Assembly (NCBI GenBank): GCA_943788175.1
Contig: CALSPG010000001.1
Location: 160,001-224,000, forward strand
Length of the DNA: 64,000 nt
Direction of reading: 5' to 3'
Origin: an uncultured bacterium
GTDB taxonomy: Bacteria > Fidelibacterota > Marinisomatia > Marinisomatales > UBA1611
Below the pieces are notes generated by a model. That model saw nothing but the letters and a program-made list of their open reading frames with translations. It searched no databases and was not told where the DNA came from. Position 1 is the first letter of the stretch. Each line of letters begins with the position of its first letter. A program made the position numbers and the translations under genes. Below are positions 41,101 to 63,436 of the stretch, in pieces.

Positions 41101-41192
41101 GATGAAGTTCTATCTTCAATGAAATAATCTTTTAGTCTATTATTCCATTGTTCAATTCTTGATACAATTATAGCAGTTTCTTTTTTATTCAA
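38126..41192 (-). CDS. Alpha-mannosidase, GH38 (apparent +1 frameshift near 41105-41115)
   Basis: GHAHIDTGWLW, WLPDVFGYS, GELYLELHRGT, NQFHDIIPGSSI. TTG 41192 with AAGGGA RBS gives MNKKETAIIVSRIEQW, one base out of frame with track ORF 38126-41119. Confidence 0.92.
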
Positions 41193-41253: not shown

Positions 41254-42024
41254 TTAAACAGGCGAACCTTCCATTTGTTGTTCTAGTTTTCTGGCAACAG
41301 ATAAAAACTGATTAACATTCATCTCTTTTAAGTTTACCACACCATGAACCGCTCTTAAATGCGGATTTTTGTTTTGGTACCAATAATCTCTACCAAGTAA
41401 AAGTTGAAGGTCTTTATGCTGTTTTACCCAAATATCTTGAGATAAGTCACAAAATGGACCATCAAATTCGTAACTAGGAAAAGAGGCTTCCTTTTGGCTT
41501 AAATAGCAATTATTAAACGTAGATCTCATAATAGCCATTGAATTTAAAGTCACAGGCACAATGATATCAGCTTCATCAACATCAAACCTATACCAGACAT
41601 TGCGATATCCCCATATTCTCAGTTCTGATAAGTCTTCTGTCTCGTTCCATATTCGTACGGCCTCTGCTATGGTTTGTAAGTACCTTGTATAGTGTGTATC
41701 AGGACCACTGCCTTCAGGGTCAAAGGCGACAGATATAACCGTTGGTTTAATTGTTTTAAGCTGTTCTAAAACAGGTAGTACATCTCTATTTATTTGAGGG
41801 TTTTCTGTGAAAATATCACCTTGGTAGAAACCTAATCTTAGATGATGAACGTCTTGAACGCGAACGCCGTAATTAGCCCAAACTAGTTCTTCTTCATATT
41901 CACGAATCATACCTTTAAGGCTTTGAACTTCTTTTGAATTTTTTTCACCATCATAATAATTATGAATTTCTTTAATTACTTTTTTAATAGTAATGTCTAA
42001 TTCAGAGGTATTCTTTACACCCAT
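41254..42024 (-). CDS. nagB: C-terminal part of NagB/PIG-L fusion (split from upstream ORF by a +1 frameshift)
   Basis: HLRLGFY, DPEGSGPDTHY, IWGYRNVW, YLSQKEASFPS continue the PIG-L-like domain begun in 42002-43579. Confidence 0.8.
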   Translation of the reverse strand: MGVKNTSELDITIKKVIKEIHNYYDGEKNSKEVQSLKGMIREYEEELVWANYGVRVQDVHHLRLGFYQGDIFTENPQINRDVLPVLEQLKTIKPTVISVAFDPEGSGPDTHYTRYLQTIAEAVRIWNETEDLSELRIWGYRNVWYRFDVDEADIIVPVTLNSMAIMRSTFNNCYLSQKEASFPSYEFDGPFCDLSQDIWVKQHKDLQLLLGRDYWYQNKNPHLRAVHGVVNLKEMNVNQFLSVARKLEQQMEGSPV

Positions 42025-43579
42025 AAATTTCTATTAATGCTCTAACAAGTCTATGCGACATTCCTCTTTTTTGTTGAGATGAGTTATTTTCAGCAATAGC
42101 ATCTAAGTAATGAAATACATCCTTATCCCATTTTTTTTTGTAACCGTTCTCAAAAAAATCATCGTATCGTGTCATTTGAATTTTATCATCAGCTAAAAAA
42201 GATTTTGTATCTTGAAGTAAAGTTTGAATAAAATCATTTGTAACAGATGTAAAACCAGAAGTCATATTTACGAAATGATGATGATTACTAGGTTCGCGGA
42301 TAAGTTGCATTATGTACGGCATTAAGCCAAGCATAATATCATCATGATGAGGACCAGTATGATAAAAAATTTGATTAGTTTCAAGTTTAGAACCTTTTTC
42401 AACTTTACTTTCAACTTTTTTAATTACATCGCTAACAGTGTCAGCGTTTAATGATGGGATATTTTTACAATGCTCATCATTTTGTAAATTATCAAGTGAT
42501 AGTTTTTTTCCAAAAACATTTATATCTCTTGAAAGCTCCAAAATTGAACGTTGAAGTTTTTGATCATTCCATTCTGAATTTTCCCAATAATCTCTTTCAA
42601 AGTCTGTAAGCAGCTTCCCAGCACCCTTAGTAATATAAAAACAGCTCTTTTTGAGTTTAGATAAAGCTGTTGCTGGATATTTAACATCAGGAGCATGTTC
42701 AAGCGAGTTTTTAATAATTTTCGATTTTGCTTCGCCAGCGGCGATAATTATTCCAGTTGCATCAGGATTATATGTAATCGTTCCAAGTCCAATTGTAATA
42801 ACAAGCCTATTTCTACTAATTTCAATTCCCCCAAGATCTGTAGCTGCTGCTGCCTGAGTCTCGAAATTAGTACCAGTTAATCTTGTCGTTGAATTATGAT
42901 CAGATCCACGAACATTAAAAGCAATATGTCCATCAGGTCCAATTCCTCCAAGAAAAAAACCAATACCTCCCATGGATCTTATTTTATTTTCATATTCAGC
43001 GCACCATTGGTCAATTAGTAAAATAGATTCTTGCTGTTCTTCTTCAATCTCACTTGTTGGATCTCTAAACCTTAAAGTAAGATCGATTCTGTTATCAGGA
43101 AATATTTGTTTTCGATTTTTTCCGTTTACTAACTGAATTTTATCTGAATTTATAAGTAATGCTTTTTGGGGGTCTAATTCAAAACCTTCGATGTAATATT
43201 TGCAAACGTAATTATAAAAGCTGTTGTGTTGATTAGGATTAAGAGGATAAAATTCATCAATTTGTACAAATTTTAAGCCTCTTAAGCTTGGTTTATCTTT
43301 TAACAGTAATCCATTATCTTCTCTTAACTTTTTGACAGCCTTGTCATCCCAATTTTGAAGAATATGATGAGTCCATTTAATAAAGTATTCAGGTGTTTTT
43401 CCTGTAGGTAAACTTATGACACCATTCGGGTTATTTGATGACCACTCTAAGAACCGTAGAGAAGTAATAAGGCCAAGTTGAGGAAAGCTATCTAAGACAA
43501 TATAAGGAATACTTGAAGTTTGGGTCTTAATTGACTGTTGATTAAAAAAATGTTTTTCTACAGGACTAAATTGATGCAT
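42002..43579 (-). CDS. nagB: Glucosamine-6-phosphate deaminase-like domain plus start of PIG-L/LmbE deacetylase domain
   Basis: SLPTGKTP, QIDEFY, LGGIGPDGHIAFN, ITIGLGTI, YPATAL; then HTGPHHDDIMLG. Confidence 0.85.
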   Translation of the reverse strand: MHQFSPVEKHFFNQQSIKTQTSSIPYIVLDSFPQLGLITSLRFLEWSSNNPNGVISLPTGKTPEYFIKWTHHILQNWDDKAVKKLREDNGLLLKDKPSLRGLKFVQIDEFYPLNPNQHNSFYNYVCKYYIEGFELDPQKALLINSDKIQLVNGKNRKQIFPDNRIDLTLRFRDPTSEIEEEQQESILLIDQWCAEYENKIRSMGGIGFFLGGIGPDGHIAFNVRGSDHNSTTRLTGTNFETQAAAATDLGGIEISRNRLVITIGLGTITYNPDATGIIIAAGEAKSKIIKNSLEHAPDVKYPATALSKLKKSCFYITKGAGKLLTDFERDYWENSEWNDQKLQRSILELSRDINVFGKKLSLDNLQNDEHCKNIPSLNADTVSDVIKKVESKVEKGSKLETNQIFYHTGPHHDDIMLGLMPYIMQLIREPSNHHHFVNMTSGFTSVTNDFIQTLLQDTKSFLADDKIQMTRYDDFFENGYKKKWDKDVFHYLDAIAENNSSQQKRGMSHRLVRALIEIYGCKEYL

Positions 43580-43723: not shown

Positions 43724-44674
43724 ATGAAAAGAAGAGACTTTTTTAAAACTGGATTAGTTGGTTTTTCATTGCCATCGTTAACGAAAGCTAAATCTGATGT
43801 TAAAAGAAACAAAAAAAAACCTGTTATAATAACTACTCATAATTTTCCAAAAGCGAATGCTGCTGCTGTGAAGGTTTTAAATAAATATGGGGCATCGATG
43901 GATGCAGCAGAAGCAGCATGCATGGCTGTTGAAGCAGATGAAAAAAATAGTAATGCTGGAATAGGTAGTTTGCCGGATGAGGATGGAAGAGTGACATTAG
44001 ATTCATGTGTAATGGATAGTAATGGAAATTGTGGTTCAGTGGCTTTTTTGCAAAACATTGTCCATCCAGTTTCAGTTGCGAGAAAAATTATGGATGACAC
44101 AAAACATGTAATGCTAGTGGGAAAGGGGGCGAAAAAATTTGCTGTTTCTAAGGGTTTTAGACATACTAATTTATTGACAAAAGATTCTCGCAATGCTTGG
44201 ATGAAATGGCAAAAAAATAGAGTGGAAATGACTCCACATGATACGCATGATACTTGTGCTACCTTGATTCAAGATCATAATGGAAATATTTCAGGAGCAT
44301 GTACGACAGGAGGTTGGGCGTATAAAATGCATGGTCGGGTTGGTGATAGTCCACTTATAGGTTCCGGCTTATTTATTGATAACAATGTTGGTGGAGCAGC
44401 TGCCACCGGTTTAGGTGAAGAAGTCATAAAATCCTCTGGTAGTTTTCTAGTCGTAGAATTAATGAGGCAAGGGTATGACCCTGTATCAGCTTGCAATGAA
44501 GCTTTAAACAGAATAATTTCGTCATACAACGGTAATCCTGATTTTCAAATTTGTTATATTGCAATAAGTAAGGACGGGGAGGTAGGTGCTGCATGCCTTA
44601 AATGGGCATTCCCTCATCTTATTACTAAAAGTGGAATAACTAAATTAAAAAGTGTTAAGGGATTATTATCGTAA
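43724..44674 (+). CDS. N(4)-(beta-N-acetylglucosaminyl)-L-asparaginase (glycosylasparaginase), Tat-exported Ntn hydrolase
   Basis: MKRRDFFK twin-arginine signal; VTLDSCVMD, HVMLVG, HDT nucleophile, KMHGRVGDSPLIG, TGLGEEVI. Confidence 0.88.
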   Translation: MKRRDFFKTGLVGFSLPSLTKAKSDVKRNKKKPVIITTHNFPKANAAAVKVLNKYGASMDAAEAACMAVEADEKNSNAGIGSLPDEDGRVTLDSCVMDSNGNCGSVAFLQNIVHPVSVARKIMDDTKHVMLVGKGAKKFAVSKGFRHTNLLTKDSRNAWMKWQKNRVEMTPHDTHDTCATLIQDHNGNISGACTTGGWAYKMHGRVGDSPLIGSGLFIDNNVGGAAATGLGEEVIKSSGSFLVVELMRQGYDPVSACNEALNRIISSYNGNPDFQICYIAISKDGEVGAACLKWAFPHLITKSGITKLKSVKGLLS

Positions 44675-50731: not shown

Positions 50732-52720
50732 TTACTTCATGAACGCCATCTTCTTCGTAACAGTTGAACTTCCATCTGTTAAAGTATAGAAGTAAATACC
50801 TGTAGAAGCAGATTGACCCATTTCATCAGTTCCATTCCAACGTAACTTGTGAGTACCAGCCAGCTTAACACCGTTAGCTAAAACTTTAACTTTCTGTCCA
50901 AGGACATTAAAAATCGTCAAGTTAACTGTTGAAGCTTGAGCAATACTAAACTCAATCTCAGTTGTTGGATTAAACGGATTCGGATAATTCTGCTTTAGTG
51001 CAAACTCTTTTGGTAAAGCTGTTGAATTATCTGTACCTAATGTAACTAATGACCAACGAGGATCTCCAATTGGGCCACCAGTTGTACTATGCGTAGCAGC
51101 TGTAGAAACAGAGCTATAGCTAGCATTGTAGTGCATAGGCCATTCAATCGTATTCATATTGCCATCATGCTCATATGACCAGTTATTATTAGCGCCAACA
51201 CCTTGAGTAGTTTGATCATCTCTGAAGTCCAATGTTCTTGCGAGCTGTTTTGTTATATACATCTCATCAAGCTGCATTTGTAAGTCAGACCAGTTTAAAA
51301 CTGCATTATTTGTGCTTGTAACACCTATACCGGCAGCGATTGTAGCTAAAGTTGAATCATCAGCCCATACCATCTGCTGAGCAGCGGTTAACATTGTGTC
51401 ATGAACAGTAACAGTAGTAGTACCGCCTGAACCAACATGTACAACGGTATCAGCTGCAGTAGTTACAAATATTGAATCAACACAACCAGAACCATCAGCC
51501 GCGTAAGCAGAAGTGATAGTATCAAAAACAGCTGGCGTAATAGTCATTGAATCCGGTGTAACAGTAGTTACGGTCCAAGACCAAGGATTGTTTGCCATAT
51601 TATTCATAAAGCCAGTTAATGCTGGGCTCCAAACAGCTGCATTGTTGCTCCAATTGATATTTCTATCATTCATATTAACAACTTGACCATCTGACATGAT
51701 ATAAGTACCCGCGGTTACTTGTTGGGTATCAGCAGGTGTGGTAATAGTCGTAGTAATTACACACTGATCTGAAGTATCAATTTGTACCACAGCAGGCGTA
51801 ATATCTTCAAATCCATCTGGGTTTACTATCCCGGCTTTTCTCAATGCCATTTGACCTACTCCGCCTTCCCACCAGACGCCCCATCCTGAAACATCATAGG
51901 TAGACTGACCGTAAGACTTTGTGTTATATAGAAGGTTGTTGGTAACCTGTAGGTTATTCTGTCCACGATACCAAATCATATCCATAACAACATTGGTAAA
52001 TGTGTTATGATCAATGATGCCATGATCAACGTGCTCATAAATTACTAAGGCCTCACCAATCACACCATCAACAGTATTTTGTCTAAATTCTAGTGTGTCA
52101 ATAGTACCCAACCAAGAACCGGCACCCCAGACTACACCACCATAAAACATTCCGCCTGGGCCATTAGTAAAAGCCTTAAAAACGGAATTCGTTATATGGA
52201 AATCTGTATTTTTTCCCAAAGTAAAAAAAGCTAGAAAATTAACATGCGAAACAATACAATTGTTAACGATGATTTTGTTATCGGTTGATGTTGCGCCTGC
52301 AATTTGAAGTGAACCCTCTTCACCAGATGCGTAAGCGTTAAGAATGAGGTTCTCCAACTTCAATTCAGCACCTGCACCCACTAGTGTAAAAAACAGTCCG
52401 TTTTGGTGTCCTAAAGCACCTTCAGCGTTAGCTAGAGGTTGAATGGTAACTGGTTTAACGTCAGCGCTTGCAGGAACTTCACCTATAATGTGAATTGCTT
52501 GGCCGGCATCTACCGGAATATGTTCCGATGTAAGCCATTTTCCGCCTGCGACTGATGGTAAGCTTAGTCTGTAAACGCCAGCTCCACCTGCTGTAATTGC
52601 TGCTTCAAGCTGTCCTGGCTGTGCGGCTGCATCCCAGACTACTTCAGTAGTATCTGCGAACAACGTTACAGAAGAAAAGGTAAGAGCAATTAAGCTATTT
52701 TTTAATAACGATTTTATCAT
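50732..52720 (-). CDS. Secreted parallel beta-helix-like protein with Thr-rich insertions and C-terminal T9SS-type/FlgD-Ig sorting domain
   Basis: AAGGAG RBS; signal peptide; Asn-ladder repeats (IIVNNCIV, FHITNSVF, IIDHNTF, QVTNNLLYN); GDPRW; FALKQNYPNPFNPTTEI..IFNVLGQKVKVL..GIYFYTL..TKKMAFMK. Confidence 0.8.
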   Translation of the reverse strand: MIKSLLKNSLIALTFSSVTLFADTTEVVWDAAAQPGQLEAAITAGGAGVYRLSLPSVAGGKWLTSEHIPVDAGQAIHIIGEVPASADVKPVTIQPLANAEGALGHQNGLFFTLVGAGAELKLENLILNAYASGEEGSLQIAGATSTDNKIIVNNCIVSHVNFLAFFTLGKNTDFHITNSVFKAFTNGPGGMFYGGVVWGAGSWLGTIDTLEFRQNTVDGVIGEALVIYEHVDHGIIDHNTFTNVVMDMIWYRGQNNLQVTNNLLYNTKSYGQSTYDVSGWGVWWEGGVGQMALRKAGIVNPDGFEDITPAVVQIDTSDQCVITTTITTPADTQQVTAGTYIMSDGQVVNMNDRNINWSNNAAVWSPALTGFMNNMANNPWSWTVTTVTPDSMTITPAVFDTITSAYAADGSGCVDSIFVTTAADTVVHVGSGGTTTVTVHDTMLTAAQQMVWADDSTLATIAAGIGVTSTNNAVLNWSDLQMQLDEMYITKQLARTLDFRDDQTTQGVGANNNWSYEHDGNMNTIEWPMHYNASYSSVSTAATHSTTGGPIGDPRWSLVTLGTDNSTALPKEFALKQNYPNPFNPTTEIEFSIAQASTVNLTIFNVLGQKVKVLANGVKLAGTHKLRWNGTDEMGQSASTGIYFYTLTDGSSTVTKKMAFMK

Positions 52721-52862: not shown

Positions 52863-55349
52863 ATGAAAACTAAAATAGTTGAACGTTTAATCGAAGGATG
52901 GGAATTCAAGGAAGTCTCTTCAAAGACTTGGATGCCAGCTTCAGTACCTGGCTGCGTTCATACCGACCTATACAATAACAATGAAATAGTAGACCCATTT
53001 GTTGGTACCAATGAAATTGATCTCCAGTGGATAGGAAATAAAAGTTGGATATATAGAACAAAATTTAAAATCGACAGAAACCTTTTTAAAATGGAAACTA
53101 TTTTTTTAAACTTCTTAGGATTAGATACATACGCTAAGGTCAGTCTAAACAATGTAGACATTTTAGACGCTGATAATATGTTTCGTGCATGGACAGTCAA
53201 CGTTAAAGAAATAATTACAGAAAATGAAAATGAGCTCATAATTAAATTTGATTCTCCAATTGAAAAAATCTTGCCTTTAATGAAATCAATTGATTATGAA
53301 TTGCCTGCGGATAATGATCAAATAAAAAAAACTAGTCCTTACACTCGCAAGGCTCCCTACCATTACGGTTGGGACTGGGGGCCAAGCTTTGCAACCTCAG
53401 GAATTTGGCAACATGTAGAATTGATTGGTTATAATTCTTTTACAATTAAAGATTTGTTTATTAATCAAATGAAAACCGATAAAATAAGTTCACAGATTGA
53501 GTGTAACGTTTTTGTTCACTCAGAACGCAGATGTAAAGCTGACCTATTGATCAAAGAGCAAAAAAGTAATATAAACATTGTAAAGTCTATCGATTTATCT
53601 CCTGGAATTAATCAAATAAAAAAGATTGTTGAAATATCTAAACCTGATCTTTGGTGGCCGAATGGTCATGGCCAACAAAATATGTACGAATTCAATGTAA
53701 AAGTGGAATCGGTTGATTACTATGAATCTATTAAAAAAAGAGTTGGGTTGAGAGATTTTAAAGTTGAACAAAAAATAGATAAAAAAGGATCTAGTTTTAC
53801 ATTTGTTGTCAATGGTAAACCAATTTTTTCAAAAGGAGCGAATTGGATTCCAGCAGATTCTTTTACAACCAGATTAACTAAAAAAAATTATTATACATTA
53901 TTAAAAAGCGCGGTTGATGCTAATATGAATACACTACGAGTGTGGGGTGGTGGAATATATGAAAGTGATGATTTTTATGATTTATGCGACGAAATGGGAT
54001 TAATCGTTTGGCAGGATTTTATGTTCGCATGCACACTCTATCCCGGAGATAAAGATTTTTTAGAAAGCGTTAGAAAGGAAGCAGAATATCAAGTTTCTAG
54101 ATTAAGAAATCACCCTTCAATAGGGTTATGGTGTGGGAATAATGAAATTGCGTGGGCTTGGCATAATTGGGGCTGGAAAGATAGATTTCCTGAGCAACTT
54201 TATTATAATGATTATAATTCATTGTTCCATAATGTTTTGCCGAGTGTTTGTAATGAGTTTGATCCCAATCGGTTATATTGGCCTTCTTCGCCTGGAGATA
54301 GTGATATGTTACCAACTGTTGGGCAGCAATTTGGTAGTGGTGATAATCATTACTGGGGTGTATGGCATAGCGGAGACAAATTTGTTGCATTCGAAAGCAA
54401 TATTGGGCGCTTTATGTCTGAATTTGGCATGCAATCTTTTCCAGATTTAAAAACTATAGACTATTTTTGCGAAGATAAAGATCAAAGTATTAATTCAACT
54501 GTCATAAAACAACATCAAAAAGCATCCTTAGGCAACGATAACGTTATGAAATACATCCTAATGTATTTTAAACCACCAAAAGACTTTTACTCATTCGTTT
54601 TGTCAAGTCAGATTATGGCTGGTGAAGCTATAAAAATAGCTGCCGAGGCGCATAGAAGGAATATGCCTTACTGCATGGGCTCATTATATTGGCAATTAAA
54701 CGATTGCTGGCCTGGGGCATCTTGGTCATCCTTAGATTATTTCGGTAACTGGAAAGCATTGCATTATTATGCTAAAGAATTTTTTAAACCTCTTTTGATT
54801 TCATTTGAAGAGGAAGAAGACGGTGTGAGCATATATATTGTTAATGACGGCAACATTATAAATAATGCATTAATATTTTTTGAGGTGCGCAATTTTAATA
54901 ACGTTGTTGAGTATAGTCATGATTTACCTTTGGATATTAAACCTAATGAATCAAAAAAAGTTTTTTTTGAAAAAAAGAAAGTCTTATTTGCAAAAAGTAA
55001 AAAGAATAATATTTTACTAAGGGCTAAGATAGTTTTGAATGATGAAACTATCTCATCAAGCGATTATCTTTTTGATATTCCAAAAAATTTGAAGATTCCT
55101 AAGCAAAATTTTTCTACAATCATAGAAAAATTTGGAAACAGAATTAAAATTAAAATTAATTCTAAATCGTTCTTGTACAAATTTCATATCCTTTGTTCCA
55201 ATGATACGGGTCGATTTGATGATAACTATTTTAATATGCTTCCTGGCGAAGAAAAAACGATCCTATTTTTTCCATCGATTAATTTAAAAGGTAATATAAA
55301 TTTTGAGCCAAAGTTTATATTTAATAGTGTTGAAGGCTTAAGTAATTAA
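52863..55349 (+). CDS. Beta-mannosidase, GH2
   Basis: RKAPYHYGWDWGP, KGANWIPAD, LRVWGGGIYE, WQDFMFAC, WCGNNE (acid/base), RFMSEFG (nucleophile), YWQLNDCWP. Confidence 0.93.
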   Translation: MKTKIVERLIEGWEFKEVSSKTWMPASVPGCVHTDLYNNNEIVDPFVGTNEIDLQWIGNKSWIYRTKFKIDRNLFKMETIFLNFLGLDTYAKVSLNNVDILDADNMFRAWTVNVKEIITENENELIIKFDSPIEKILPLMKSIDYELPADNDQIKKTSPYTRKAPYHYGWDWGPSFATSGIWQHVELIGYNSFTIKDLFINQMKTDKISSQIECNVFVHSERRCKADLLIKEQKSNINIVKSIDLSPGINQIKKIVEISKPDLWWPNGHGQQNMYEFNVKVESVDYYESIKKRVGLRDFKVEQKIDKKGSSFTFVVNGKPIFSKGANWIPADSFTTRLTKKNYYTLLKSAVDANMNTLRVWGGGIYESDDFYDLCDEMGLIVWQDFMFACTLYPGDKDFLESVRKEAEYQVSRLRNHPSIGLWCGNNEIAWAWHNWGWKDRFPEQLYYNDYNSLFHNVLPSVCNEFDPNRLYWPSSPGDSDMLPTVGQQFGSGDNHYWGVWHSGDKFVAFESNIGRFMSEFGMQSFPDLKTIDYFCEDKDQSINSTVIKQHQKASLGNDNVMKYILMYFKPPKDFYSFVLSSQIMAGEAIKIAAEAHRRNMPYCMGSLYWQLNDCWPGASWSSLDYFGNWKALHYYAKEFFKPLLISFEEEEDGVSIYIVNDGNIINNALIFFEVRNFNNVVEYSHDLPLDIKPNESKKVFFEKKKVLFAKSKKNNILLRAKIVLNDETISSSDYLFDIPKNLKIPKQNFSTIIEKFGNRIKIKINSKSFLYKFHILCSNDTGRFDDNYFNMLPGEEKTILFFPSINLKGNINFEPKFIFNSVEGLSN

Positions 55350-55366
55350 TAATAATTGGAGATATA

Positions 55367-56056
55367 ATGACGTTAGAAAATGACATACGAATGGATAGGT
55401 TAGACAAAACAAAAGAGGCCGCTACGAAAGTTAATGAATCGCTAGATTGGCCAAATCTCATAAAATTCAGAAAAGAAAATGATGAGATTAGAAAAACTGG
55501 TTTGAAAGTTAAAATTGTATTTATGGGTGATTCGATTACTGAGGGTTGGTCATTAAGTGACCCCGATTTTTTTAAAAAGAACAGTTTTGTTAATCGTGGT
55601 ATTGGAGGTCAAACTTCACCACAAATGCTATTAAGATTCAAACAAGACGCAATTCATCTTAATCCTAATATGGTGATAATAAATGCTGGAACAAATGATA
55701 TAGCGGAAAATACTGGTCCATCTAATCAAGAAATGATAATCGACAACATAACATCAATGGCTGAAATTTGTATGAAAAACAACATTGATGTTGCACTTTC
55801 TACTATTCTTCCAGTCTTTAAGTACTCTTGGAATGAAAATATTATAAATGTTCCAGAAAAAATTTCGAGTGTTAATAAGATCCTTAAAAAGTATACGGAA
55901 AATAACAATATACAGTTTATAGACTATTATTCTTCAATGGTTGATGAGCAAAAAGGGTTGATGTCTGCATATGGTACTGATGGTGTTCATCCAACAAAAG
56001 AAGGGTATAAAGTAATGGCGGATACGTTAAGAAATACAATTGCAGGGGTACAATGA
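55367..56056 (+). CDS. SGNH/GDSL acetylesterase
   Basis: FMGDSITEGW, NRGIGGQTSPQMLLRF, AGTNDIA, DGVHP. Confidence 0.88.
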   Translation: MTLENDIRMDRLDKTKEAATKVNESLDWPNLIKFRKENDEIRKTGLKVKIVFMGDSITEGWSLSDPDFFKKNSFVNRGIGGQTSPQMLLRFKQDAIHLNPNMVIINAGTNDIAENTGPSNQEMIIDNITSMAEICMKNNIDVALSTILPVFKYSWNENIINVPEKISSVNKILKKYTENNNIQFIDYYSSMVDEQKGLMSAYGTDGVHPTKEGYKVMADTLRNTIAGVQ

Positions 56057-57162
56057 ATTTTCAATTGATTGTTAAAATTTGTTTATTATTGATTTCAATT
56101 GTTTCTCCAATTTTTAGCCAAGGTTTTTGGGGTAATGAGTTTCCAGAAGGGAAAATTGAATACGAGCCGAAGTCATATGTTTGTTATAAAACTGTTCAAC
56201 CTGTAATACTTGATGGTAAAATCACCGAAAAAGCTTGGGCAGATATTCCCTGGACAGATTCTTTTGTTGATATTGAAGGTTCTTTAAAGCCAAGGCCATA
56301 TAATGATACGAAAGTAAAAATGCTTTGGGATCGGGATTATTTTTATTTTGCTGTGTACATGAAAGAGCCACATGTCTGGGCAACAATAAAAGAAAGGGAT
56401 GCAGTAATCTATAAAGACAATGATTTTGAGATATTTTTAGATCCAGACGGAGACACTCATAACTATTACGAGCTAGAGGTTAATGCTTATGGAACAGAAT
56501 GGGATTTGTTAATTACTAAGCCTTATCATGATGGTGGAAAAGTAGCCTTAGATTCTTGGGATATACCTGGTTTAATTACAAGTGTACACATTGATGGTAC
56601 ATTGAATGATGCTTCGGATCTTGATAGCGGATGGAGCATTGAAATCGCGATTCCTTGGAAGGCCTTCATTGGAAATTACCGTTCTAATAATCCACCAAAA
56701 GATGGTGAGCAATGGAAAATTAATTTTAGTAGAGTCCATTGGGAAACGAATATTATTAATTCAGCTTATGTAAAAACTGAGAGGCCCGAATATAATTGGG
56801 TATGGTCACCTCAGGGTGTAATATACATGCACATGCCTGATCTTTGGGGCTTGGTACAATTTACAGAAAATATCATTGGTAAAGAGGTTGTACAATTCAA
56901 GTATAGTAAGATTGATAAGATAAAATGGAGCCTAAGACAGGTATATTACAAGCAGCGAAATTATTTTTTTGCGAATCAAAAATATTCTGATTCAATTAGA
57001 GAATTAAATTTCTTTAAAGATTTAAAATTGAAAAAAACACCTTTTAATGGAGTTTCTTGGCCGCCAAAAATTACATTAACACCCTCAGGCTGGGAAGCTT
57101 TTGTAACATGGGAAAATAAAAATATTATCATTCGCAAGGATGGAAGGGTGTGGGTTGAATGA
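56053..57162 (+). CDS. Carbohydrate-binding family 9-like exported protein
   Basis: LDGKITEKAW, TKVKMLWD, DNDFEIFLDPDGD, WSIEIAIPW, WKINFSRV, NWVWSPQG. Confidence 0.85.
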   Translation: MNFQLIVKICLLLISIVSPIFSQGFWGNEFPEGKIEYEPKSYVCYKTVQPVILDGKITEKAWADIPWTDSFVDIEGSLKPRPYNDTKVKMLWDRDYFYFAVYMKEPHVWATIKERDAVIYKDNDFEIFLDPDGDTHNYYELEVNAYGTEWDLLITKPYHDGGKVALDSWDIPGLITSVHIDGTLNDASDLDSGWSIEIAIPWKAFIGNYRSNNPPKDGEQWKINFSRVHWETNIINSAYVKTERPEYNWVWSPQGVIYMHMPDLWGLVQFTENIIGKEVVQFKYSKIDKIKWSLRQVYYKQRNYFFANQKYSDSIRELNFFKDLKLKKTPFNGVSWPPKITLTPSGWEAFVTWENKNIIIRKDGRVWVE

Positions 57163-59231
57163 ACTTATCATTTATTGATTGGATGATTGTAATAATTGTT
57201 CTTGTTGGTATGATTTACTCAGTTAATCTAACCAAAGGATTAATGAAAAGTGTAAGTGATTTTTTATCTGCTGGAAGAACAGCTGGCAGATATGTTTTAT
57301 CTATTTCAAGTGGCGTAGCGGGACTAGGTGCTATTTCCATTGTGATGTTTTTAGAAATGGGATATGTCGCAGGATTTTCATTGTCATGGTGGGGTTTAAG
57401 CCAAGGTATAATTCTTTTAGCTATTACAATGTCTGGATGGGTAATTTATCGTTTCAGGATGACTCGAAGTCTCACGTTGGCTCAGTTTTTTGAAAAAAGA
57501 TATAGTCGAAAATTTAGAATATTTGCAGGCCTAGTGGCTTTTTTTGCTGGCCTCATTAATTTTGGAATATTTCCTGCAGTTGGGGCACAGTTTTTTATAA
57601 ACTTTTGTGGTTTACCAGAGTACTTGTTAGGTCTACCGATGTATCCTCTAGTGATGATAGTATTATTAGGAATTGCATTGTATTTTGTATACACAGGTGG
57701 TCAAATAGCTGTAATAATTGCTGATTTTTTTCAAGGTGTTTTTGTAACAATTATATTATTTATTATTACTTTGTATTTGCTTTTTAGTATTGGTTGGGAT
57801 CAGGTTTCTGATTCGTTGCAAAATACACCTATAAAACTGGCAAAAGAAGAAATTCAGGTTCTCAAAGGTGATGCGTCTTTTCAGTTGTTATCAAAAGAAG
57901 AACAAACATTACAAACTGATGAAATTAATGTAAAATATGAAAATTCTTCTCGCATAAATCCATTTAAAACTAGTCATGTGGAGGATTTTAATTTGTGGTA
58001 TTTTCTCATCGGTATCATAGGAGTTATGTATGGCGCCCTAAGCTGGCAAGGGTCTCAAGGGTATAACTCATCAGCAAAAAATGCTCATGAAGCGAAAATG
58101 GGTGTTGTTTTAGCAGGCTGGAGAGGTATTCCCCAAGGGATGTTTATGTTTTTAGTCCCTGTGCTTGTTTATGTTTTAATGAATCACCCTGATTATCAAC
58201 ATATAGCTGATTCAGTCAATGCTTCGCTAGCTTCTTTATCTTCAGATACTTTGCAAGGTCAAATGAGAGCTCCTTTTGTACTATCTGAAATATTACCCGT
58301 TGGATTAATTGGTGCATTCGCGGCCTTGATGCTTGCTGCTTTTATCAGTACACATGACACGTACTTGCATTCATGGGGTTCTATATTTATTCAAGATGTC
58401 ATTATGCCTTTCCGAAAAAAACCATTTGATAAAGAAACGCATATAAAAGTTTTAAGATATTCTATTTTTGGAGTTGCTGTTTTTATATTCCTATTTAGCT
58501 TACTCTTTAGCCAGAGTCAAAAGATTGCACTTTACTTTGCGGTTACTGCTGCTATTTTTGCTGGAGGATGTGGTGCTGTAATTATTGGTGGTTTGTATTG
58601 GAATAAAGGTACAACAGCGGCTGCTTGGACCGCAATGATAATTGGAGCTGTAATTGGGGTTTCCGGTACACTGATCAAGCAAATTTCTGATATCTGGTTA
58701 CTAGACGTAAGTAGTTATAGTCAGCTAAAAACAATTTTAATATTTTTAAAAAATATTAATGGTCAAGAATACTGGGGCCTAGGTATGGCCTCTTCATCAA
58801 TATCCTACATCGTAGTATCTCTTTTATTCCCTGAAAAACTAGTAAATATGGATAAGTTATTAAATAGAGGGGAATATAGCATTGATGGAGAAGTTAATGT
58901 AGTCGATGAGCAAGTTAAAAGAGGTTGGAAGGTTTTTGGAATGGGAAAAGAATTCACTAAGAATGATAAACTAATTTACATTCTTAATTATGCATGGACT
59001 GGATTCTGGACCTTGGTGTTTATTATTGGAACAGTTTATAATTTATCAAACCCTGTCAGTGACGATGCTTGGATGAAATTCTGGGAGTATTATATTTACA
59101 TTCATTTAATACTATCAGGCATTGTTTTAATATGGTTCACCCTAGGAGGGTTTTACGATCTAAAAAGCATGATAAATGCTTTAAAATCTGATGTAAGAGA
59201 TCACGGGGATTCAGGATGGGTAGACAGCTAA
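57159..59231 (+). CDS. Sodium:solute symporter family transporter
   Basis: DFLSAGR, TLAQFFEKRYS, LPVGLIGAFAALMLAAFIST; many TM segments. Confidence 0.92.
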   Translation: MNLSFIDWMIVIIVLVGMIYSVNLTKGLMKSVSDFLSAGRTAGRYVLSISSGVAGLGAISIVMFLEMGYVAGFSLSWWGLSQGIILLAITMSGWVIYRFRMTRSLTLAQFFEKRYSRKFRIFAGLVAFFAGLINFGIFPAVGAQFFINFCGLPEYLLGLPMYPLVMIVLLGIALYFVYTGGQIAVIIADFFQGVFVTIILFIITLYLLFSIGWDQVSDSLQNTPIKLAKEEIQVLKGDASFQLLSKEEQTLQTDEINVKYENSSRINPFKTSHVEDFNLWYFLIGIIGVMYGALSWQGSQGYNSSAKNAHEAKMGVVLAGWRGIPQGMFMFLVPVLVYVLMNHPDYQHIADSVNASLASLSSDTLQGQMRAPFVLSEILPVGLIGAFAALMLAAFISTHDTYLHSWGSIFIQDVIMPFRKKPFDKETHIKVLRYSIFGVAVFIFLFSLLFSQSQKIALYFAVTAAIFAGGCGAVIIGGLYWNKGTTAAAWTAMIIGAVIGVSGTLIKQISDIWLLDVSSYSQLKTILIFLKNINGQEYWGLGMASSSISYIVVSLLFPEKLVNMDKLLNRGEYSIDGEVNVVDEQVKRGWKVFGMGKEFTKNDKLIYILNYAWTGFWTLVFIIGTVYNLSNPVSDDAWMKFWEYYIYIHLILSGIVLIWFTLGGFYDLKSMINALKSDVRDHGDSGWVDS

Positions 59232-59246
59232 GGAGAAAATAATCAC

Positions 59247-60335
59247 GTGAAACATATATTAATTGTTATTGGCTATTTTATAATATTTACTGGATGCAGG
59301 CACGATGAATCGAAATTGGGAAAAGCAGTTGATCAAATGGAGCCGAATGAAATGATTGGCTACGTACCCAACAACCAAAAGTTAGGGATGAAGTGGCTAT
59401 TAAATAATATGCTCGAGGATGATAAGAAAACCTTGAGTGTTAGGTTTCTTTTAGATAATTGCATTTACGCATACAAGGCCTGGGAAAACACTCCCTGGGG
59501 TAGCGTTAATGATTCATTGTTTTTTGAGTATGTACTCCCTTATTCAAGTTTAAATGAGAGAAGAGATAATTGGAGACTGGATTTTTACGAGCGTTTTTAT
59601 CCAATTGTGAAAAATGCCAAATCTGCTTACGAAGCAGCAGCTATCTTAAACAATAATATTTTTGAGATGGTTGGAGTCATTTACTCCACAAAAAGACCAA
59701 AAGCAGATCAGTCACCATACGAAAGTATTGAGGCAGGTTTAGCTTCTTGCACAGGACTGAGTTTTATGTTAATTGATGCGTGTAGAAGCGTTGGGATACC
59801 TGCTAGGTTTGTTGGTACCCCATCTTGGTATAATAATAGTGGAAATCATTCTTGGGTAGAAATTTGGGATAATGGGTGGCATTTTACAGGCGCTTATGAA
59901 CCAACTGGCGACAAGCTAAATGATGGTTGGTTTACTGATTTAGCGGCCAGAGCTGTTGAAGGGCATCCTAAATATGGCATTTATGCTTCTACTTGGAAGG
60001 AAACGGACATTTATTTTCCAATGGATTGGAAACCTGGTGTAAATAAATACTTTGCAGTGGATGTTACACCAAGGTATCAAAATTTTCTAGATAGTAATCT
60101 TATTCCACTTCGCATAAAGGTTGTGGATTCAAATGGTGAAAGAAAAAGAATTTTAGTCAGTGTAAGTGGTGATAACGATTTTTCATTTGCGGGGTACTCA
60201 AAGGATGAAAAAAATGATTCAAACGACCATCTAACTCTTTACTTACCCGAAAGTAATTCGTTTATAATAAAAGTCAATCAATACTCAAAGACTGTTATAC
60301 TAAATAAGGAAGAGTTAATTGAAATTAAGATTTAA
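59247..60335 (+). CDS. Transglutaminase-like (Cys-His) domain lipoprotein
   Basis: AAGGAG RBS; FTGC lipobox; FFEYVLPY..NERRDNWR; ASCTGLS..ACRSVGIPARFVG..NHSWVEIWDNGWHF. Confidence 0.85.
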   Translation: MKHILIVIGYFIIFTGCRHDESKLGKAVDQMEPNEMIGYVPNNQKLGMKWLLNNMLEDDKKTLSVRFLLDNCIYAYKAWENTPWGSVNDSLFFEYVLPYSSLNERRDNWRLDFYERFYPIVKNAKSAYEAAAILNNNIFEMVGVIYSTKRPKADQSPYESIEAGLASCTGLSFMLIDACRSVGIPARFVGTPSWYNNSGNHSWVEIWDNGWHFTGAYEPTGDKLNDGWFTDLAARAVEGHPKYGIYASTWKETDIYFPMDWKPGVNKYFAVDVTPRYQNFLDSNLIPLRIKVVDSNGERKRILVSVSGDNDFSFAGYSKDEKNDSNDHLTLYLPESNSFIIKVNQYSKTVILNKEELIEIKI

Positions 60336-60390: not shown

Positions 60391-61152
60391 ATGATTGATG
60401 ATTTTTCAAAAAATGGATATTATTTAAAAAAAACAATTTTTAGTAAGTCTCTTATTAATTTATATGAAAGTGAATTTGATAAGATTGTCCATCAGCTTAA
60501 AAAAAGTAGGGAGGATATAAATGCTCGATGGGGAAGCAAGTTAACATCTAATATTGAACCTGATGATAGCTTTGTCATTCATACTCATAATGTCCAGAGC
60601 TATTCTTCGGTCTTGCTCCAGATGATACAAAATAATAGCTTCTTAGATGAGGTTGAAAAAATTATAGGCCCCGATATTATTCTTCATCATACAAAGCTGT
60701 TCGAAAAACCACCGATAATAGGAGCTGCCTTTCCTTTGCACCAAGATTGGTCTTATTTCCCTACAAGGAATAATTCAATGATTGCAGCGGTTATCCACCT
60801 ATCAAGATCGGATGAAGATATGGGTTGCATGAGAATTATTCCTAAATCACATAAACTCGGAAAAATTAAAAACAGTGATGGGCATAGATATAACTCTAAG
60901 ATTCATAATAAGTATAAGTTAGAAGATGCAATACCAATAGAAGCTAACCCAGGTGATGTTCTTTTTTTTCATTGTTGCAGCCTACATGGTTCAATGTCAA
61001 ATTTATCAACTAAACCTAGAAAGAGCATTTTAGTGCAATTATATTCTGGTCAAGATGAAGTTGAAGAGGGAAATAATCATACGAATGCTCAACTAGTGTT
61101 AAGAGGTTTTAATTATTCTTCAACTCGCTCATCTGTTAATGTAAAAATATGA
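60391..61152 (+). CDS. PhyH-family Fe(II)/2-oxoglutarate dioxygenase 1
   Basis: LHQDWSY, GCMRIIPKSHK, GDVLFFH..HGS..N..PRKS. Confidence 0.9.
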   Translation: MIDDFSKNGYYLKKTIFSKSLINLYESEFDKIVHQLKKSREDINARWGSKLTSNIEPDDSFVIHTHNVQSYSSVLLQMIQNNSFLDEVEKIIGPDIILHHTKLFEKPPIIGAAFPLHQDWSYFPTRNNSMIAAVIHLSRSDEDMGCMRIIPKSHKLGKIKNSDGHRYNSKIHNKYKLEDAIPIEANPGDVLFFHCCSLHGSMSNLSTKPRKSILVQLYSGQDEVEEGNNHTNAQLVLRGFNYSSTRSSVNVKI

Positions 61153-61156
61153 ATAA

Positions 61157-61942
61157 ATGAATTTAAAAACTTCATTTAAACAATTTTATCAAGAAAATGG
61201 ATATGCTATTATTCCTGATGTTATTGATTCAGGCTTAGTGTTAGAAGTTCAAAACCATGTTATGTGGCTACAAAATAAATACCCGGATATTCGCGCAGAA
61301 GCTTTTCATCATGATCTTTTAATTAATGATCCTTTTATTCACAAGCTTTTAGATAATAAAAACATGCTCGATATTATTGAAGGAGTTATAGGTTCAGATA
61401 TAGCTCTTTTTGGCGCCCATTACATTGCAAAAAGACCAAGAGATGGCAAACCAGTTGGTTGGCATCAGGACGGTTCATATTGGCCGTTAGAGCCAATGAA
61501 TGTAGTTTCAATTTGGTTAGCTGGAACAGATTCAAATAAATCAAATGGTTGTATGCGTGTTATTCCCGGAACTCAAAACAAAAAATTAATTAAAGCCTCT
61601 GAAATGATAAAATTAGATACAAACGATTATGTTTTAGATTTGGCCATTTCTAAAAGTGATATTGATAGTCAAAAAGCTGTAGATGTAGAGCTTAATGCAG
61701 GGGACATTTCAATTCATAATCCTTCAATCGTTCATGGCTCAAATGCTAATTTATCTGATAGTTGGAGAATTGGATTAACACTTAGATTTATTCCTACTTC
61801 CACTTATGTAAACAGAGCAAATTGGGAATGCATACTTCTTCGAGGAAGACCTAATAATGCAGTAAAAAATAATTACGTATCGAAGCCTATTTTTCAAGAA
61901 GGTGAGCATATGTATTTTTCTGGATATAAAAACTTTTTATAG
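61157..61942 (+). CDS. PhyH-family Fe(II)/2-oxoglutarate dioxygenase 2
   Basis: WHQDGSYW, NGCMRVIPGT, GDISIH..HGSNAN..WRIG. Confidence 0.9.
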   Translation: MNLKTSFKQFYQENGYAIIPDVIDSGLVLEVQNHVMWLQNKYPDIRAEAFHHDLLINDPFIHKLLDNKNMLDIIEGVIGSDIALFGAHYIAKRPRDGKPVGWHQDGSYWPLEPMNVVSIWLAGTDSNKSNGCMRVIPGTQNKKLIKASEMIKLDTNDYVLDLAISKSDIDSQKAVDVELNAGDISIHNPSIVHGSNANLSDSWRIGLTLRFIPTSTYVNRANWECILLRGRPNNAVKNNYVSKPIFQEGEHMYFSGYKNFL

Positions 61943-61950
61943 GGGATTGC

Positions 61951-62724
61951 TTGATTAGTGAAAATAATAACTTAAAGGATACTGGTTTCACCTTTGTAGA
62001 TGATGTTTTTTTGCAAACGGATATTCTAGAATCAAAAAATTCATTTTGGGATGTAATCAATTCTAAATATGACACTGGAATTGAACCAGAAAATAGATTT
62101 TGGAATGTAGGCGAAGATCCAAAGAAAATAATTAAGATTGATAAACCTCATTTAAGTAGTAACGCATTACACAATCTTATAACCCAAGAAAATTTTGGTA
62201 AAATCCTTGCGAAGATTACTAAAGCAAGAAAAATTCAGGTTTGGCACACGCAGGGAGTATGGAAACCGACAGGAGGTGGATTAAAGGGCAATGCTGGTTG
62301 GCATAGAGACATTCAATACTGGCCTTTTTGGGAGCCCTATGGTATTTTTACTGCTTGGATTGCATTAACTGACGTTTTTTCAAATTCAGGTCCTGTGAGA
62401 TATATTGCAGGTAGCCACCATTGGAATGAAATAAGTGGCGTGGATTTTTTTAATAATGATATAGAGTGTCAGGATAAAATAATTAAACAGAAACATAGTA
62501 ATTATAAAATTGTTAAGGCTCAAATTGCTTCTGGATCTATAGCCATTCATGGATCAAAAACATACCATTCATCCGTAAATAACACTAGTGGGAGTCCTCG
62601 TGTAGGAATGGTCGTACACTTTTCTACAGACCAAGCAAAAAAAATAAATATAACTGATAAGCATTCTGACTATTTAGATATTTTAAATGATCAATCCATT
62701 TGTCCGATTATATATGATTCTTAA
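61951..62724 (+). CDS. PhyH-family Fe(II)/2-oxoglutarate dioxygenase 3
   Basis: WHRDIQYW, GPVRYIAGSH, GSIAIH..YHSSVNN..PRVG. Confidence 0.88.
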   Translation: MISENNNLKDTGFTFVDDVFLQTDILESKNSFWDVINSKYDTGIEPENRFWNVGEDPKKIIKIDKPHLSSNALHNLITQENFGKILAKITKARKIQVWHTQGVWKPTGGGLKGNAGWHRDIQYWPFWEPYGIFTAWIALTDVFSNSGPVRYIAGSHHWNEISGVDFFNNDIECQDKIIKQKHSNYKIVKAQIASGSIAIHGSKTYHSSVNNTSGSPRVGMVVHFSTDQAKKINITDKHSDYLDILNDQSICPIIYDS

Positions 62725-62773
62725 TTTGTTACATTATCTTTTGTTTATTTTTTATCAATTTTGAAAGGTTTTT

Positions 62774-63436
62774 ATGTCTAATAGTACTATCGGCTTAAAT
62801 GACGATTTAAGAAATTATTTATTGAGTGTATCATGTCGTGAAAGTAAAACGTTGAAAGATTTGCGCAAAGAAACATTAATACTCAAAGAAGCTCAAATGC
62901 AAATATCTCCAGAACAAGGCTCTTTTTTAGCGTTCTTGGTAAAAGTTTTAAAAGCAAAAAAGACTTTAGATATTGGTGTTTTCACAGGATATAGTTCACT
63001 GGTTGTTGCAGATGCACTACCTGATGATGGCGTTGTTATTGCCTGCGACACCAGTGAAGAGTGGACAAATATCGCTCGAAAATATTGGAAACTAGCAGGT
63101 GTAAATAATAAAATTCAATTAAAATTAGCTCCAGCTATAGAAACACTCGATAAATTAATTGAAAACGGCTGCAAAGGTACATTTGATTTTTCATTTATAG
63201 ATGCAGATAAAATAAACTATCAAAATTATTTAGAAAGGTCGCTAATATTACTAAAACCAGGTGGAGTTGTTGCAATTGATAATGTATTGTGGGGAGGAAA
63301 AGTGTTAGACAGTCAAGATAATGAACCCGCAACAAGAGCGATTAGAATATTTAATGAAAAGCTTAAGGGCGATGAAAGAGTATTAATTTCAATGGTTCCA
63401 ATTGGAGATGGCTTAACTCTTGCATTCAAAAAATAG
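62774..63436 (+). CDS. SAM-dependent O-methyltransferase (caffeoyl-CoA OMT/COMT class)
   Basis: MQISPEQG, LDIGVFTGYS, FIDADKINY, DNVLWGG, GDGLTL. Confidence 0.9.
   Translation: MSNSTIGLNDDLRNYLLSVSCRESKTLKDLRKETLILKEAQMQISPEQGSFLAFLVKVLKAKKTLDIGVFTGYSSLVVADALPDDGVVIACDTSEEWTNIARKYWKLAGVNNKIQLKLAPAIETLDKLIENGCKGTFDFSFIDADKINYQNYLERSLILLKPGGVVAIDNVLWGGKVLDSQDNEPATRAIRIFNEKLKGDERVLISMVPIGDGLTLAFKK

Follow-up and report, generated by a model that had tools for sequence, protein, structure and literature searches.

What does an exported protein of transglutaminase fold do in an operon with a beta-mannosidase and a sodium:solute symporter (SSS)? The question is raised by a gene at positions 59,247 to 60,335 of a 64,000-nucleotide stretch of DNA (hereafter the window), which covers positions 160,001 to 224,000 of contig CALSPG010000001.1 (GenBank assembly GCA_943788175.1), from an uncultured bacterium of the Marinisomatales. 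An earlier interpretation made from the letters of the window (the sequence-only reading) had proposed that the product of this gene, hereafter the target, is a bacterial peptide:N-glycanase (PNGase) that releases N-glycans from glycopeptides at the surface or in the periplasm, filling the role of a missing GH18 endoglycosidase. We find that the target is probably an exported cysteine hydrolase with an intact Cys-His-Glu set, judging from its sequence and that of its relatives, and that it comes from a family tied to carbohydrate processing. Our preferred but tentative explanation is that decorated glycans or glycoconjugates are its substrates, and that it takes off an acyl or amide group that is not itself a sugar.

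Sequence, fold, and conservation of the target

The gene is one open frame of 362 amino acids (aa) with a GTG start (Table 1). The N-terminus of the protein reads VKHILIVIGYFIIFTGC and has the form of a signal peptide ending in a lipobox-like FTGC motif (Cys17), and PF01841 (Transglut_core) is its sole Pfam family (aa 120–211, E 5.9e-14; the score of 52.7 bits exceeds the cut-off, 23). No family matched in an NCBIfam scan of the protein. The AlphaFold model (mean predicted local distance difference test, pLDDT, 80.9; predicted template modeling score, pTM, 0.80) consists of a helical N-terminal domain, an alpha/beta core, and a C-terminal beta-sandwich. The motifs ASCTGLS (Cys168), NHSWVEIW (His201), and WHFTGAYEP (Glu218) are all present, with Glu218, by motif order, in the place of the superfamily's usual Asp. 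As such, the lipobox, the Cys and His motifs, and the absent Asp noticed in the sequence-only reading are all found in the translation, and the transglutaminase fold that it had named is upheld by the Pfam match and by structural Z scores of 10.5–11.1 to TG3, factor XIII (FXIII), and the bacterial structure 3isr. The protein has 4 Cys in total (17, 72, 168, and 179), none of them in a CxxC motif.

The putative active site is conserved throughout the family. The 50%-identity representatives listed, 150 in number, gave 151 aligned stretches. Of these, 150 retain Cys168 and 150 retain His201; at position 218, 127 have Glu and 7 have Asp (acidic in 134). A smaller alignment of 36 sequences has Cys168 and His201 in every one. 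Because Glu is kept in 127 of the 151 stretches, Glu218 is a family trait and not a lesion. Further near-invariant residues include Glu104, Arg110, Arg150, Gln155, Glu159, Arg180, Arg187, Asn200, Glu205, and Trp194, Trp203, Trp211, and Trp228, the first 5 of which belong to the N-terminal helical domain, in the stretch YSTKRPKADQSPYES just ahead of the catalytic helix. Read from the alignment, such conservation is what one would expect if these residues formed an active site whose cleft is rich in aromatic side chains. We also considered that the target might be a non-catalytic binding or scaffolding module in which only the fold has been retained. Inactive transglutaminase-fold proteins do exist, and one of them, protein 4.2, is among the structural matches; however, the near-complete retention of Cys168, His201, and an acidic residue at 218 across clusters sharing no more than 50% identity makes this very improbable.

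The family is large and has no name of its own. Of 3105 candidates close to the target in length, 1929 are relatives at E<=1e-3. In a 50%-identity library, 4456 representatives match the family profile at E<=1e-3, and 754 still do so at E<=1e-30. Species-representative genomes were scanned as well, with at least 595 relatives confirmed, and the best 80 loci, which were studied, belong to Marinimicrobia, Planctomycetota (many), and Verrucomicrobiota (some); an Atlas look-up suggests that Bacteroidota have relatives too. Where a listed relative has a source name, in one case, it reads "transglutaminase-like domain-containing protein", and the automatic names of the nearest Atlas clusters are either this or "hypothetical protein". 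A lipobox-like motif is present in 17 of 121 proteins (the target and its 120 closest listed homologues), including every homologue of at least 70% identity, while the remaining ones examined have a plain signal-like N-terminus.

Domain fusions in the family

The most informative result is the domain architecture of the family which, as far as sequence matches tell, is built like modular carbohydrate-active enzymes; in these, a catalytic module is usually combined with a carbohydrate-binding module (CBM) and with decoration-stripping enzymes. Among the 150 listed representatives, 65 are at least 550 aa long, and 47 contain a carboxylesterase-like alpha/beta-hydrolase domain, mostly on the C-terminal side but N-terminal in some (e.g. 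P0167, P0182, and P0251). An HGGGG motif is present in this domain, as is GYSAGG at the nucleophile elbow, and its best solved relatives are the carboxylesterase LC-Est1C (2.8e-7) and the T. maritima esterase 3doh; next come esterases of the polyester, acetyl-xylan, and feruloyl types. In Pfam, it matches DLH in 34 of 34 members and, more weakly, Peptidase_S9 in 24 of 34 (E<=0.1); no S9 peptidase is found at E<=1 among its solved relatives.

Other partners recur less often. A full-length homologue of the CBM9-like protein encoded next to the symporter in the window is fused in 9 of 150 representatives (29–47% identity), on either side of the core, and 13 of 150 share an N-terminal domain of ∼170–530 aa (P0140, P0172, P0186, P0194, P0242, P0250, and seven more), with no Pfam match even at E<=1 in the 8 members scanned. 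A sulfatase, a GH39-like, a SASA (P0229), a GDSL, and a metallophosphoesterase domain are each found in one representative. Metallopeptidase hints in two fused forms (ATLF, 1.3e-4, in P0136; SprT/M48, ∼0.02, in P0215) were set aside as too weak to use.

Comparison with known enzymes of the fold

We compared the model with solved structures using Foldseek, took a second look at the matches that it listed, and searched 48,161 chains independently; all three agree. Foldseek gives a probability of 1.00 to both TG3 and 3isr. The closest structures are 3isr, a "putative cysteine protease" of Cytophaga hutchinsonii (Z 10.5–11.1, 155–160 aligned), and the animal transglutaminases factor XIII, TG2, and TG3 (Z 10–11, with 10.5–11.1 for TG3 and FXIII; ∼180–215 aligned), followed by 3kd4, the "putative protease" BDI_1141 of Parabacteroides (Z 8.5–8.7). 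Yeast Png1 (1x3w, Z 7.7, rank 47; 3esw, Z 7.7) and mouse PNGase (2f4o, Z 7.4, rank 13) come lower, at 17–19% identity over 146–153 residues, together with LapG (Z 7.3), Rad4/XPC (Z 6.5–7.0), and PeiW, TgpA, and arylamine N-acetyltransferase (Z about 6). The C-terminal beta-sandwich matches Ig-like or CnaB-like domains, and also 3e8v, a "possible transglutaminase-family protein fragment" of B. fragilis (Z 7.0, root-mean-square deviation 2.2, 70 aligned). In a profile alignment, Cys168 and His201 are set on the Cys and His motifs of 3isr, which is the only catalytic-core match (E 0.13); two weaker profile matches among solved structures (E 1.1 and 1.5) both fall on the N-terminal region. The first of these, the UBA domain 1vek, was dismissed as a chance match, as was the antibody that was the only match in a single-protein search of solved structures (E 0.53).

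The sequence-only reading had suggested a structural comparison with yeast Png1; the Z scores of the PNGases (7.4–7.7) are below those of TG3, FXIII, and 3isr (10.5–11.1). The target is a member of the transglutaminase superfamily and, on the evidence of its model, is not especially PNGase-like. As a periplasmic PNGase, the target would use Cys168 to attack the Asn-GlcNAc (N-acetylglucosamine) amide of imported glycopeptides, freeing the N-glycan and converting Asn to Asp. The fold has a precedent for this chemistry, since Png1 and mouse PNGase are among the matches; they share with the target a core of transglutaminase type, the order of its Cys and His motifs, and a plausible link to N-glycan breakdown. 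By contrast, the target is exported (signal peptide and lipobox-like Cys17) and not cytosolic, has Glu for Asp, and differs in its N-terminal helical domain and its extra C-terminal beta-sandwich. Zn-binding CxxC pairs beside the core are typical of Png1, which is understood to need them, and these are absent from the target. No closer to PNGases than to other members of the fold, the target is in our view unlikely to be one, and the locus, discussed below, has points on both sides.

The two nearest bacterial structures raise another explanation, namely that the target is a glycopeptide-trimming cysteine peptidase. Such an enzyme would cut beside the glycosylated residue and feed Asn-glycan with free ends to a glycosylasparaginase, for which a candidate gene sits in the locus; glycosylasparaginase requires free Asn. 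Both 3isr (Z 11.1) and 3kd4 were deposited as putative proteases, the alpha/beta-hydrolase fused in many relatives weakly matches Peptidase_S9, and peptidase genes are found near a few homologues (M19 dipeptidase directly flanks the homologue in 2 loci and is within two genes of it in 4, and an S9 prolyl oligopeptidase flanks it in 1). However, the depositors of 3isr and 3kd4 were guessing when they called them proteases, these proteins are only 6–16% identical to the target, and they have none of its family's fusions. The solved relatives of the fused hydrolase are esterases, and fusions with CBM9, sulfatase, and SASA domains are untypical of peptidases. We therefore regard a peptidase as an improbable solution. 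The animal transglutaminases share the core fold and the Cys-His arrangement of the target, but are multi-domain, calcium-regulated cross-linkers of ∼700 aa with Asp as third residue.

Two bacterial systems also bear comparison. WbmE of Bordetella bronchiseptica is described as a periplasmic transglutaminase-superfamily enzyme that deamidates the uronamides of O-polysaccharide, with a triad (Cys165, His201, and Asp216) at almost the same chain positions as in the target (PMC2615507). Like the target, WbmE is an exported member of the superfamily; unlike the target, it has Asp as third residue and serves biosynthesis rather than catabolism. WbmE shows that this fold can act on a polysaccharide-borne amide. 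Similarly, the cellulosome of Ruminococcus flavefaciens is described as having ten dockerin-bearing transglutaminase-like proteins of unknown function (PMC2930009). These resemble the target family in that transglutaminase-like modules have been recruited to a polysaccharide-degrading apparatus, and differ in being attached through dockerins and not through CBM9 or esterase fusions.

Gene organization of the locus

The target belongs to a run of plus-strand genes in the order GH2 beta-mannosidase, GDSL esterase, CBM9-like, SSS, target, three PhyH, and O-methyltransferase, with overlaps or gaps of at most 56 nucleotides (nt) between them (Table 1). It starts 16 nt after the SSS gene, and a consensus pattern scan found no terminator-like site at the SSS/target and target/PhyH junctions. 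This is in line with the operon of beta-mannosidase, symporter, and target described in the sequence-only reading. Further upstream are genes for a type IX secretion system (T9SS)-sorted protein, a small lipoprotein, a TonB-dependent receptor, two SGNH esterases, and a TrmB regulator, as well as the twin-arginine Asparaginase_2, a NagB-like gene, GH38, and the 708-aa SASA esterase. From its gene content, the locus reads as a mannoside or N-glycan utilization island.

Table 1. Coordinates of the target, its parts, and other genes in the window
Feature	Position	Strand	Basis or remark
NAGPA-type phosphodiester glycosidase	31521..32456	+	PF09992, E 5.9e-33
SASA-type esterase, 708 aa	35999..38125	+	Homologues directly upstream of target homologues in L008, L014, and L015
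GH38 alpha-mannosidase	38126..41119	-	Pfam; genome-level co-occurrence with target in the window's family
Two overlapping open reading frames	41254..43579	-	42002..43579 (525 aa) and 41254..42024 (256 aa)
Asparaginase_2 (glycosylasparaginase-like)	43724..44674	+	Pfam; twin-arginine-type N-terminus, periplasmic
662-aa protein with T9SS sorting tail	50732..52720	-	
GH2 beta-mannosidase and GDSL esterase	52863..56056	+	Pfam; first genes of the same-strand run
CBM9-like secreted protein	56053..57162	+	Pfam CBM9_1; clearest partner of target
Sodium:solute symporter (SSS), 690 aa	57159..59231	+	Pfam; directly upstream of target
Shine-Dalgarno-like AAGGAG	59230..59235	+	11 nt 5' of target GTG; overlaps SSS stop codon (sequence read directly)
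Target gene	59247..60335	+	One open frame, 362 aa, GTG start at 59247
Signal peptide with lipobox-like FTGC end (Cys17)	59247..59297	+	
N-terminal helical domain, ∼aa 30–165	59334..59741	+	Secondary structure of AlphaFold model; conservation
Transglutaminase core, ∼aa 166–280 (Pfam match aa 120–211)	59742..60086	+	Pfam, model, and structural searches
Cys168 codon, predicted nucleophile	59748..59750	+	Conservation; aligned to 3isr Cys motif
His201 codon, predicted general base	59847..59849	+	Conservation; aligned to 3isr His motif
Glu218 codon, usual place of superfamily Asp	59898..59900	+	Placement from motif order, not from coordinates
C-terminal beta-sandwich, ∼aa 285–362	60099..60332	+	AlphaFold model
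Three PhyH-type dioxygenases and O-methyltransferase	60391..63436	+	

The Asparaginase_2 gene would offer an alternative route for the GlcNAc-Asn bond within the same locus, and a periplasmic glycosylasparaginase-like protein in this position speaks against a further enzyme for that bond, i.e. against the target as a PNGase. In favor of a PNGase, the neighboring GH2, GH38, and Asparaginase_2 genes are of the kind that dismantle N-glycans, and no Endo-type enzyme is evident in the genome (2.27 Mb, 92% complete). Specifically, two GH18 genes lie outside the window, with chitinases and not Endo-type enzymes as their best solved relatives, and a GH85 search of the genome gave only weak matches on the same two genes. 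The premise of a missing GH18 is thus inexact as to the genes themselves and still fair as to the absence of an evident Endo-type enzyme. The genome has one GH20 gene, and the N-terminal domain of PNGase F (PF09112) found no match in it, nor in any of 14 control genomes; the fold of the target is in any case not that of PNGase F.

The clearest partner of the target, the CBM9-like protein, has a model of moderate confidence (pLDDT 69.6) with a CBM9 fold at aa 40–272 (Z 13.5 to 1i82 and 13.1 to a Bacteroides carbohydrate-binding protein) and a second, pilin-like domain at aa 282–369 (Z 8.5 to the type IV pilin-like PilE). Its own family is very abundant, with at least 7182 relatives among 8000 candidates scored. 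Complex prediction of target aa 27–362 with CBM9-like aa 24–369 scored 0.00 in two runs, made without controls, a result that speaks neither for nor against an interaction. In sister genera, the gene order CBM9-like, SSS, and GH38 pairs this protein with the 690-aa symporter, as if it served the transporter.

Several other genes of the window deserve a comment in their own right. The two overlapping open reading frames (ORFs) at 41254..43579 share one NCBIfam match, a glucosamine-6-phosphate deaminase-like model of 653 positions matched at 143–319 and 437–598; it seems that a frameshift, or else a fault of the assembly, has split one gene in two. In the 662-aa protein, the T9SS sorting tail is the sole Pfam domain; a sequence search gave no solved relative of this protein, and a 34%-identical homologue adjoins GH2 in G186, a genome of the window's family; its repeats recall by eye a parallel beta-helix, and it could be a surface enzyme or binder of the locus. 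Downstream of the target, the three PhyH-type genes are tandem 2-oxoglutarate dioxygenases and the O-methyltransferase is of the Methyltransf_3 type; a PhyH gene also lies downstream of the target in loci L001–L003 and in the genus-mate genome G160. The NAGPA-type phosphodiester glycosidase is located a few kb upstream of the glycan island.

Occurrence and gene neighborhoods in other genomes

Within a phylum sample of 201 genomes, the family profile matched 18 at E<=1e-20, with a strong match (E<1e-70) in 9. The context of the target is the window's own arrangement in G000 and G160. In two other genomes of the window's family, G133 and G186, the mannoside operon is present without the target, which lies elsewhere amid housekeeping genes (54–57% identical). 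The operon of G186 comprises a T9SS protein, GH2, GDSL, CBM9-like, SSS, and GH38, while the contig of G133 starts at the CBM9-like gene and continues with SSS and GH38. The location of the target elsewhere in these two genomes indicates that its operon placement is specific to the window's genus, and a mannoside operon without the target argues against a PNGase.

Other genomes of the sample provide glycan-related contexts of different composition. For example, G070 has the order GH92-ORF-target, and G021 has target-MFS-ROK-ORF-GH20-GH2 beta-galactosidase on one strand; these two contexts represent two further Marinimicrobia families and, with their GH92 and GH20/GH2/ROK genes, are again of the kind expected around an enzyme of N-glycan breakdown such as a PNGase. 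In G082, GH5 and an SSS transporter are found 1–4 kb from the target on the opposite strand, and nothing relevant is found near the target in G134. In G141, the ninth genome with a strong match, the gene stands at the beginning of its contig.

At the level of whole genomes, the target, the 690-aa SSS, CBM9-like, and GH38 occur together in 4 of 4 genomes of the window's family (G000, G160, G133, and G186), compared with none of the four genes in G176, G044, and G170 (0 of 3; 92–97% complete), a distribution that favors a PNGase among other glycan-related roles. Similarly, the long GH38 type (E<1e-60) is found in 6 of 9 target-bearing genomes and in 10 of 192 others, counts in which kin genomes are not independent and which represent about three lineages. 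For the same reason, the co-occurrence within the family may stand for roughly two or three events, which reduces its value for the PNGase explanation. Asparaginase_2 is found in G133, G186, and G170; in the last of these (contig C105, 277–1092) it is apparently split into two overlapping pieces.

Among the 145 genes directly flanking homologues in the 80 loci, the carbohydrate-type ones are CBM9-like (4, next downstream), SSS (3), SASA (3, next upstream), sialidase-like BNR_2 (2), and sulfatase (2), with 1 each of GH18+CBM2, GH20, 3-keto-disaccharide hydrolase, and beta-helix. The GH20, sialidase-like, and SASA flanks are once more compatible with a PNGase. The other flanks include YchF (6), DUF6580 (5), and flavin reductase (4) besides the peptidases mentioned above, and many have no family. 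When the proteins of the window were searched for across the 80 loci, the CBM9-like gene recurred in 10, and the others in 0–5. In a limited tblastn screen within ∼10 kb, homologues of N-glycan-type enzymes were found at 10 of 80 loci, a descriptive count for which there is no background rate. The expectation, from the sequence-only reading, that homologues would lie next to glycan genes is thus borne out in part: GH92, GH20 with GH2, SASA, and sialidase-like genes recur, but most neighborhoods are unrelated to glycans.

These neighborhoods invite a simpler explanation, in which the target has no special tie to glycans. It would then be a protease of general function in the periplasm, or would deamidate or cross-link proteins, or help to maintain the envelope, and a lineage-specific accident would have placed it in the operon. 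In most Marinimicrobia loci (the L004–L018 type, G133, and G186), the target lies amid housekeeping genes, e.g. tRNA-guanine transglycosylase, RadA-like, NUDIX, flavin reductase, and the homogentisate pathway, and its homologues in Planctomycetota are often flanked by YchF, secretin, or unknown genes. Moreover, the order SSS-target-PhyH is found only in the window, its genus-mate G160, and L001–L003 (L002 being the same contig as that of G160). On the other hand, accident does not account well for fusions that recur in either domain order (esterase-like in 47 of 150 and CBM9-like in 9 of 150, in addition to SASA, GDSL, sulfatase, and GH39-like), for the GH92 and GH20/GH2 contexts in two more Marinimicrobia families, or for the genome-level co-occurrence with the mannoside module. 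We consider that a glycan-independent role has a low probability.

Some arrangements recur at other loci without touching on the above. In G160 (L096, contig C75, 1793–5946), the 690-aa symporter stands in tandem duplicate before the target orthologue, with 67% and 80% identity to that of the window. In L033 (7639–9132) and eight more Planctomycetota loci, a ∼500-aa protein with no Pfam match is always directly upstream, on the same strand, of the target homologue, and five of the eight uncut homologues in these nine loci are ∼1000-aa forms of esterase-like/transglutaminase-like/esterase-like build. A DUF6580 protein of 160–195 aa adjoins the target homologue on the same strand, downstream in L008, L011, L014, and L015 and upstream in L036, and three of these five loci have the order SASA (700 aa), target, DUF6580.

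Proposed activity and implications

How, then, might the target act? Removal of a non-sugar acyl or amide substituent is the explanation we favor, because the esterase, sulfatase, and CBM fusions argue for it and WbmE provides a precedent. The results above show its fold, residue conservation, an export signal, and recurrent fusions and gene contexts; catalysis, its compartment, and the class of substrate are inferred. The target would be lipid-anchored, and most of its relatives soluble, and it would act as a catalytic module that in the family is joined, in either order, to CBM9-type, carboxylesterase-like, SGNH/SASA, or sulfatase partners. The thiolate of Cys168, activated by His201 and oriented by Glu218, would attack a carbonyl on a sugar-bearing substrate in the periplasm, forming a thioester that would then be resolved by water. 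The group removed in this way from a glycan or glycoconjugate could be an N-acyl, uronamide, or ester substituent or what is left of a peptide, and the target would work beside esterases, letting exo-glycosidases and the symporter finish the breakdown.

Several observations weigh against this explanation. Only about 18 of the 145 directly flanking genes are carbohydrate-related by Pfam name, most loci being uninformative, and any tested glycan enzyme was found at 15 of 80 loci in the limited tblastn screen, for which there is no background rate. An orthologue of the fused alpha/beta-hydrolase domain was not found in the window's own genome, and the Peptidase_S9 matches of this esterase-like partner may leave room for peptide processing. 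Finally, the substrate of the target is not readable from its sequence.

Of the original PNGase proposal, what stands is a secreted transglutaminase fold, a conserved Cys-His-Glu set, and a family tie to carbohydrate processing. What is not supported is the specific bond: nothing singles out GlcNAc-Asn, the CxxC motif is absent, Asparaginase_2 is already in the locus, and the commonest fusion partner is esterase-like (47 of 150), which together with the sulfatase, SGNH, and SASA fusions favors decorations over the peptide link. A broader scheme would make the family a new class of bacterial carbohydrate-active cysteine amidases, which cleave where a glycan meets a part that is not glycan. Its members in Marinimicrobia N-glycan loci would be periplasmic transglutaminase-fold PNGases with an origin separate from those of PNGase F and Png1, and elsewhere, fused to esterases or sulfatases, they would strip decorated marine glycoconjugates. 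We offer this scheme as speculation and think it doubtful.

Judged from its sequences, the family is a distinct Cys-His-Glu subfamily of the transglutaminase-like superfamily with a modularity like that of carbohydrate-active enzymes. We know of no carbohydrate esterase or amidase family of this fold that has been catalogued. In a full-text literature search that lay outside most subscription journals, the listings, abstract openings, and passages returned described no bacterial transglutaminase-fold PNGase, and no carbohydrate-active family of this kind under "transglutaminase-like" combined with "polysaccharide utilization" or "carbohydrate esterase"; for Marinimicrobia with transglutaminase or N-glycan, the listings contained nothing relevant.

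The family is abundant in marine heterotrophs (4456 clusters at 50% identity, E<=1e-3). If its members were PNGases after all, they could provide a useful deglycosylation tool. If the target module cuts amide or ester bonds on glycans or glycopeptides, models in which Marinimicrobia, Planctomycetota, and Verrucomicrobiota feed on glycoproteins and on decorated glycans of algae would gain a step that they now lack.

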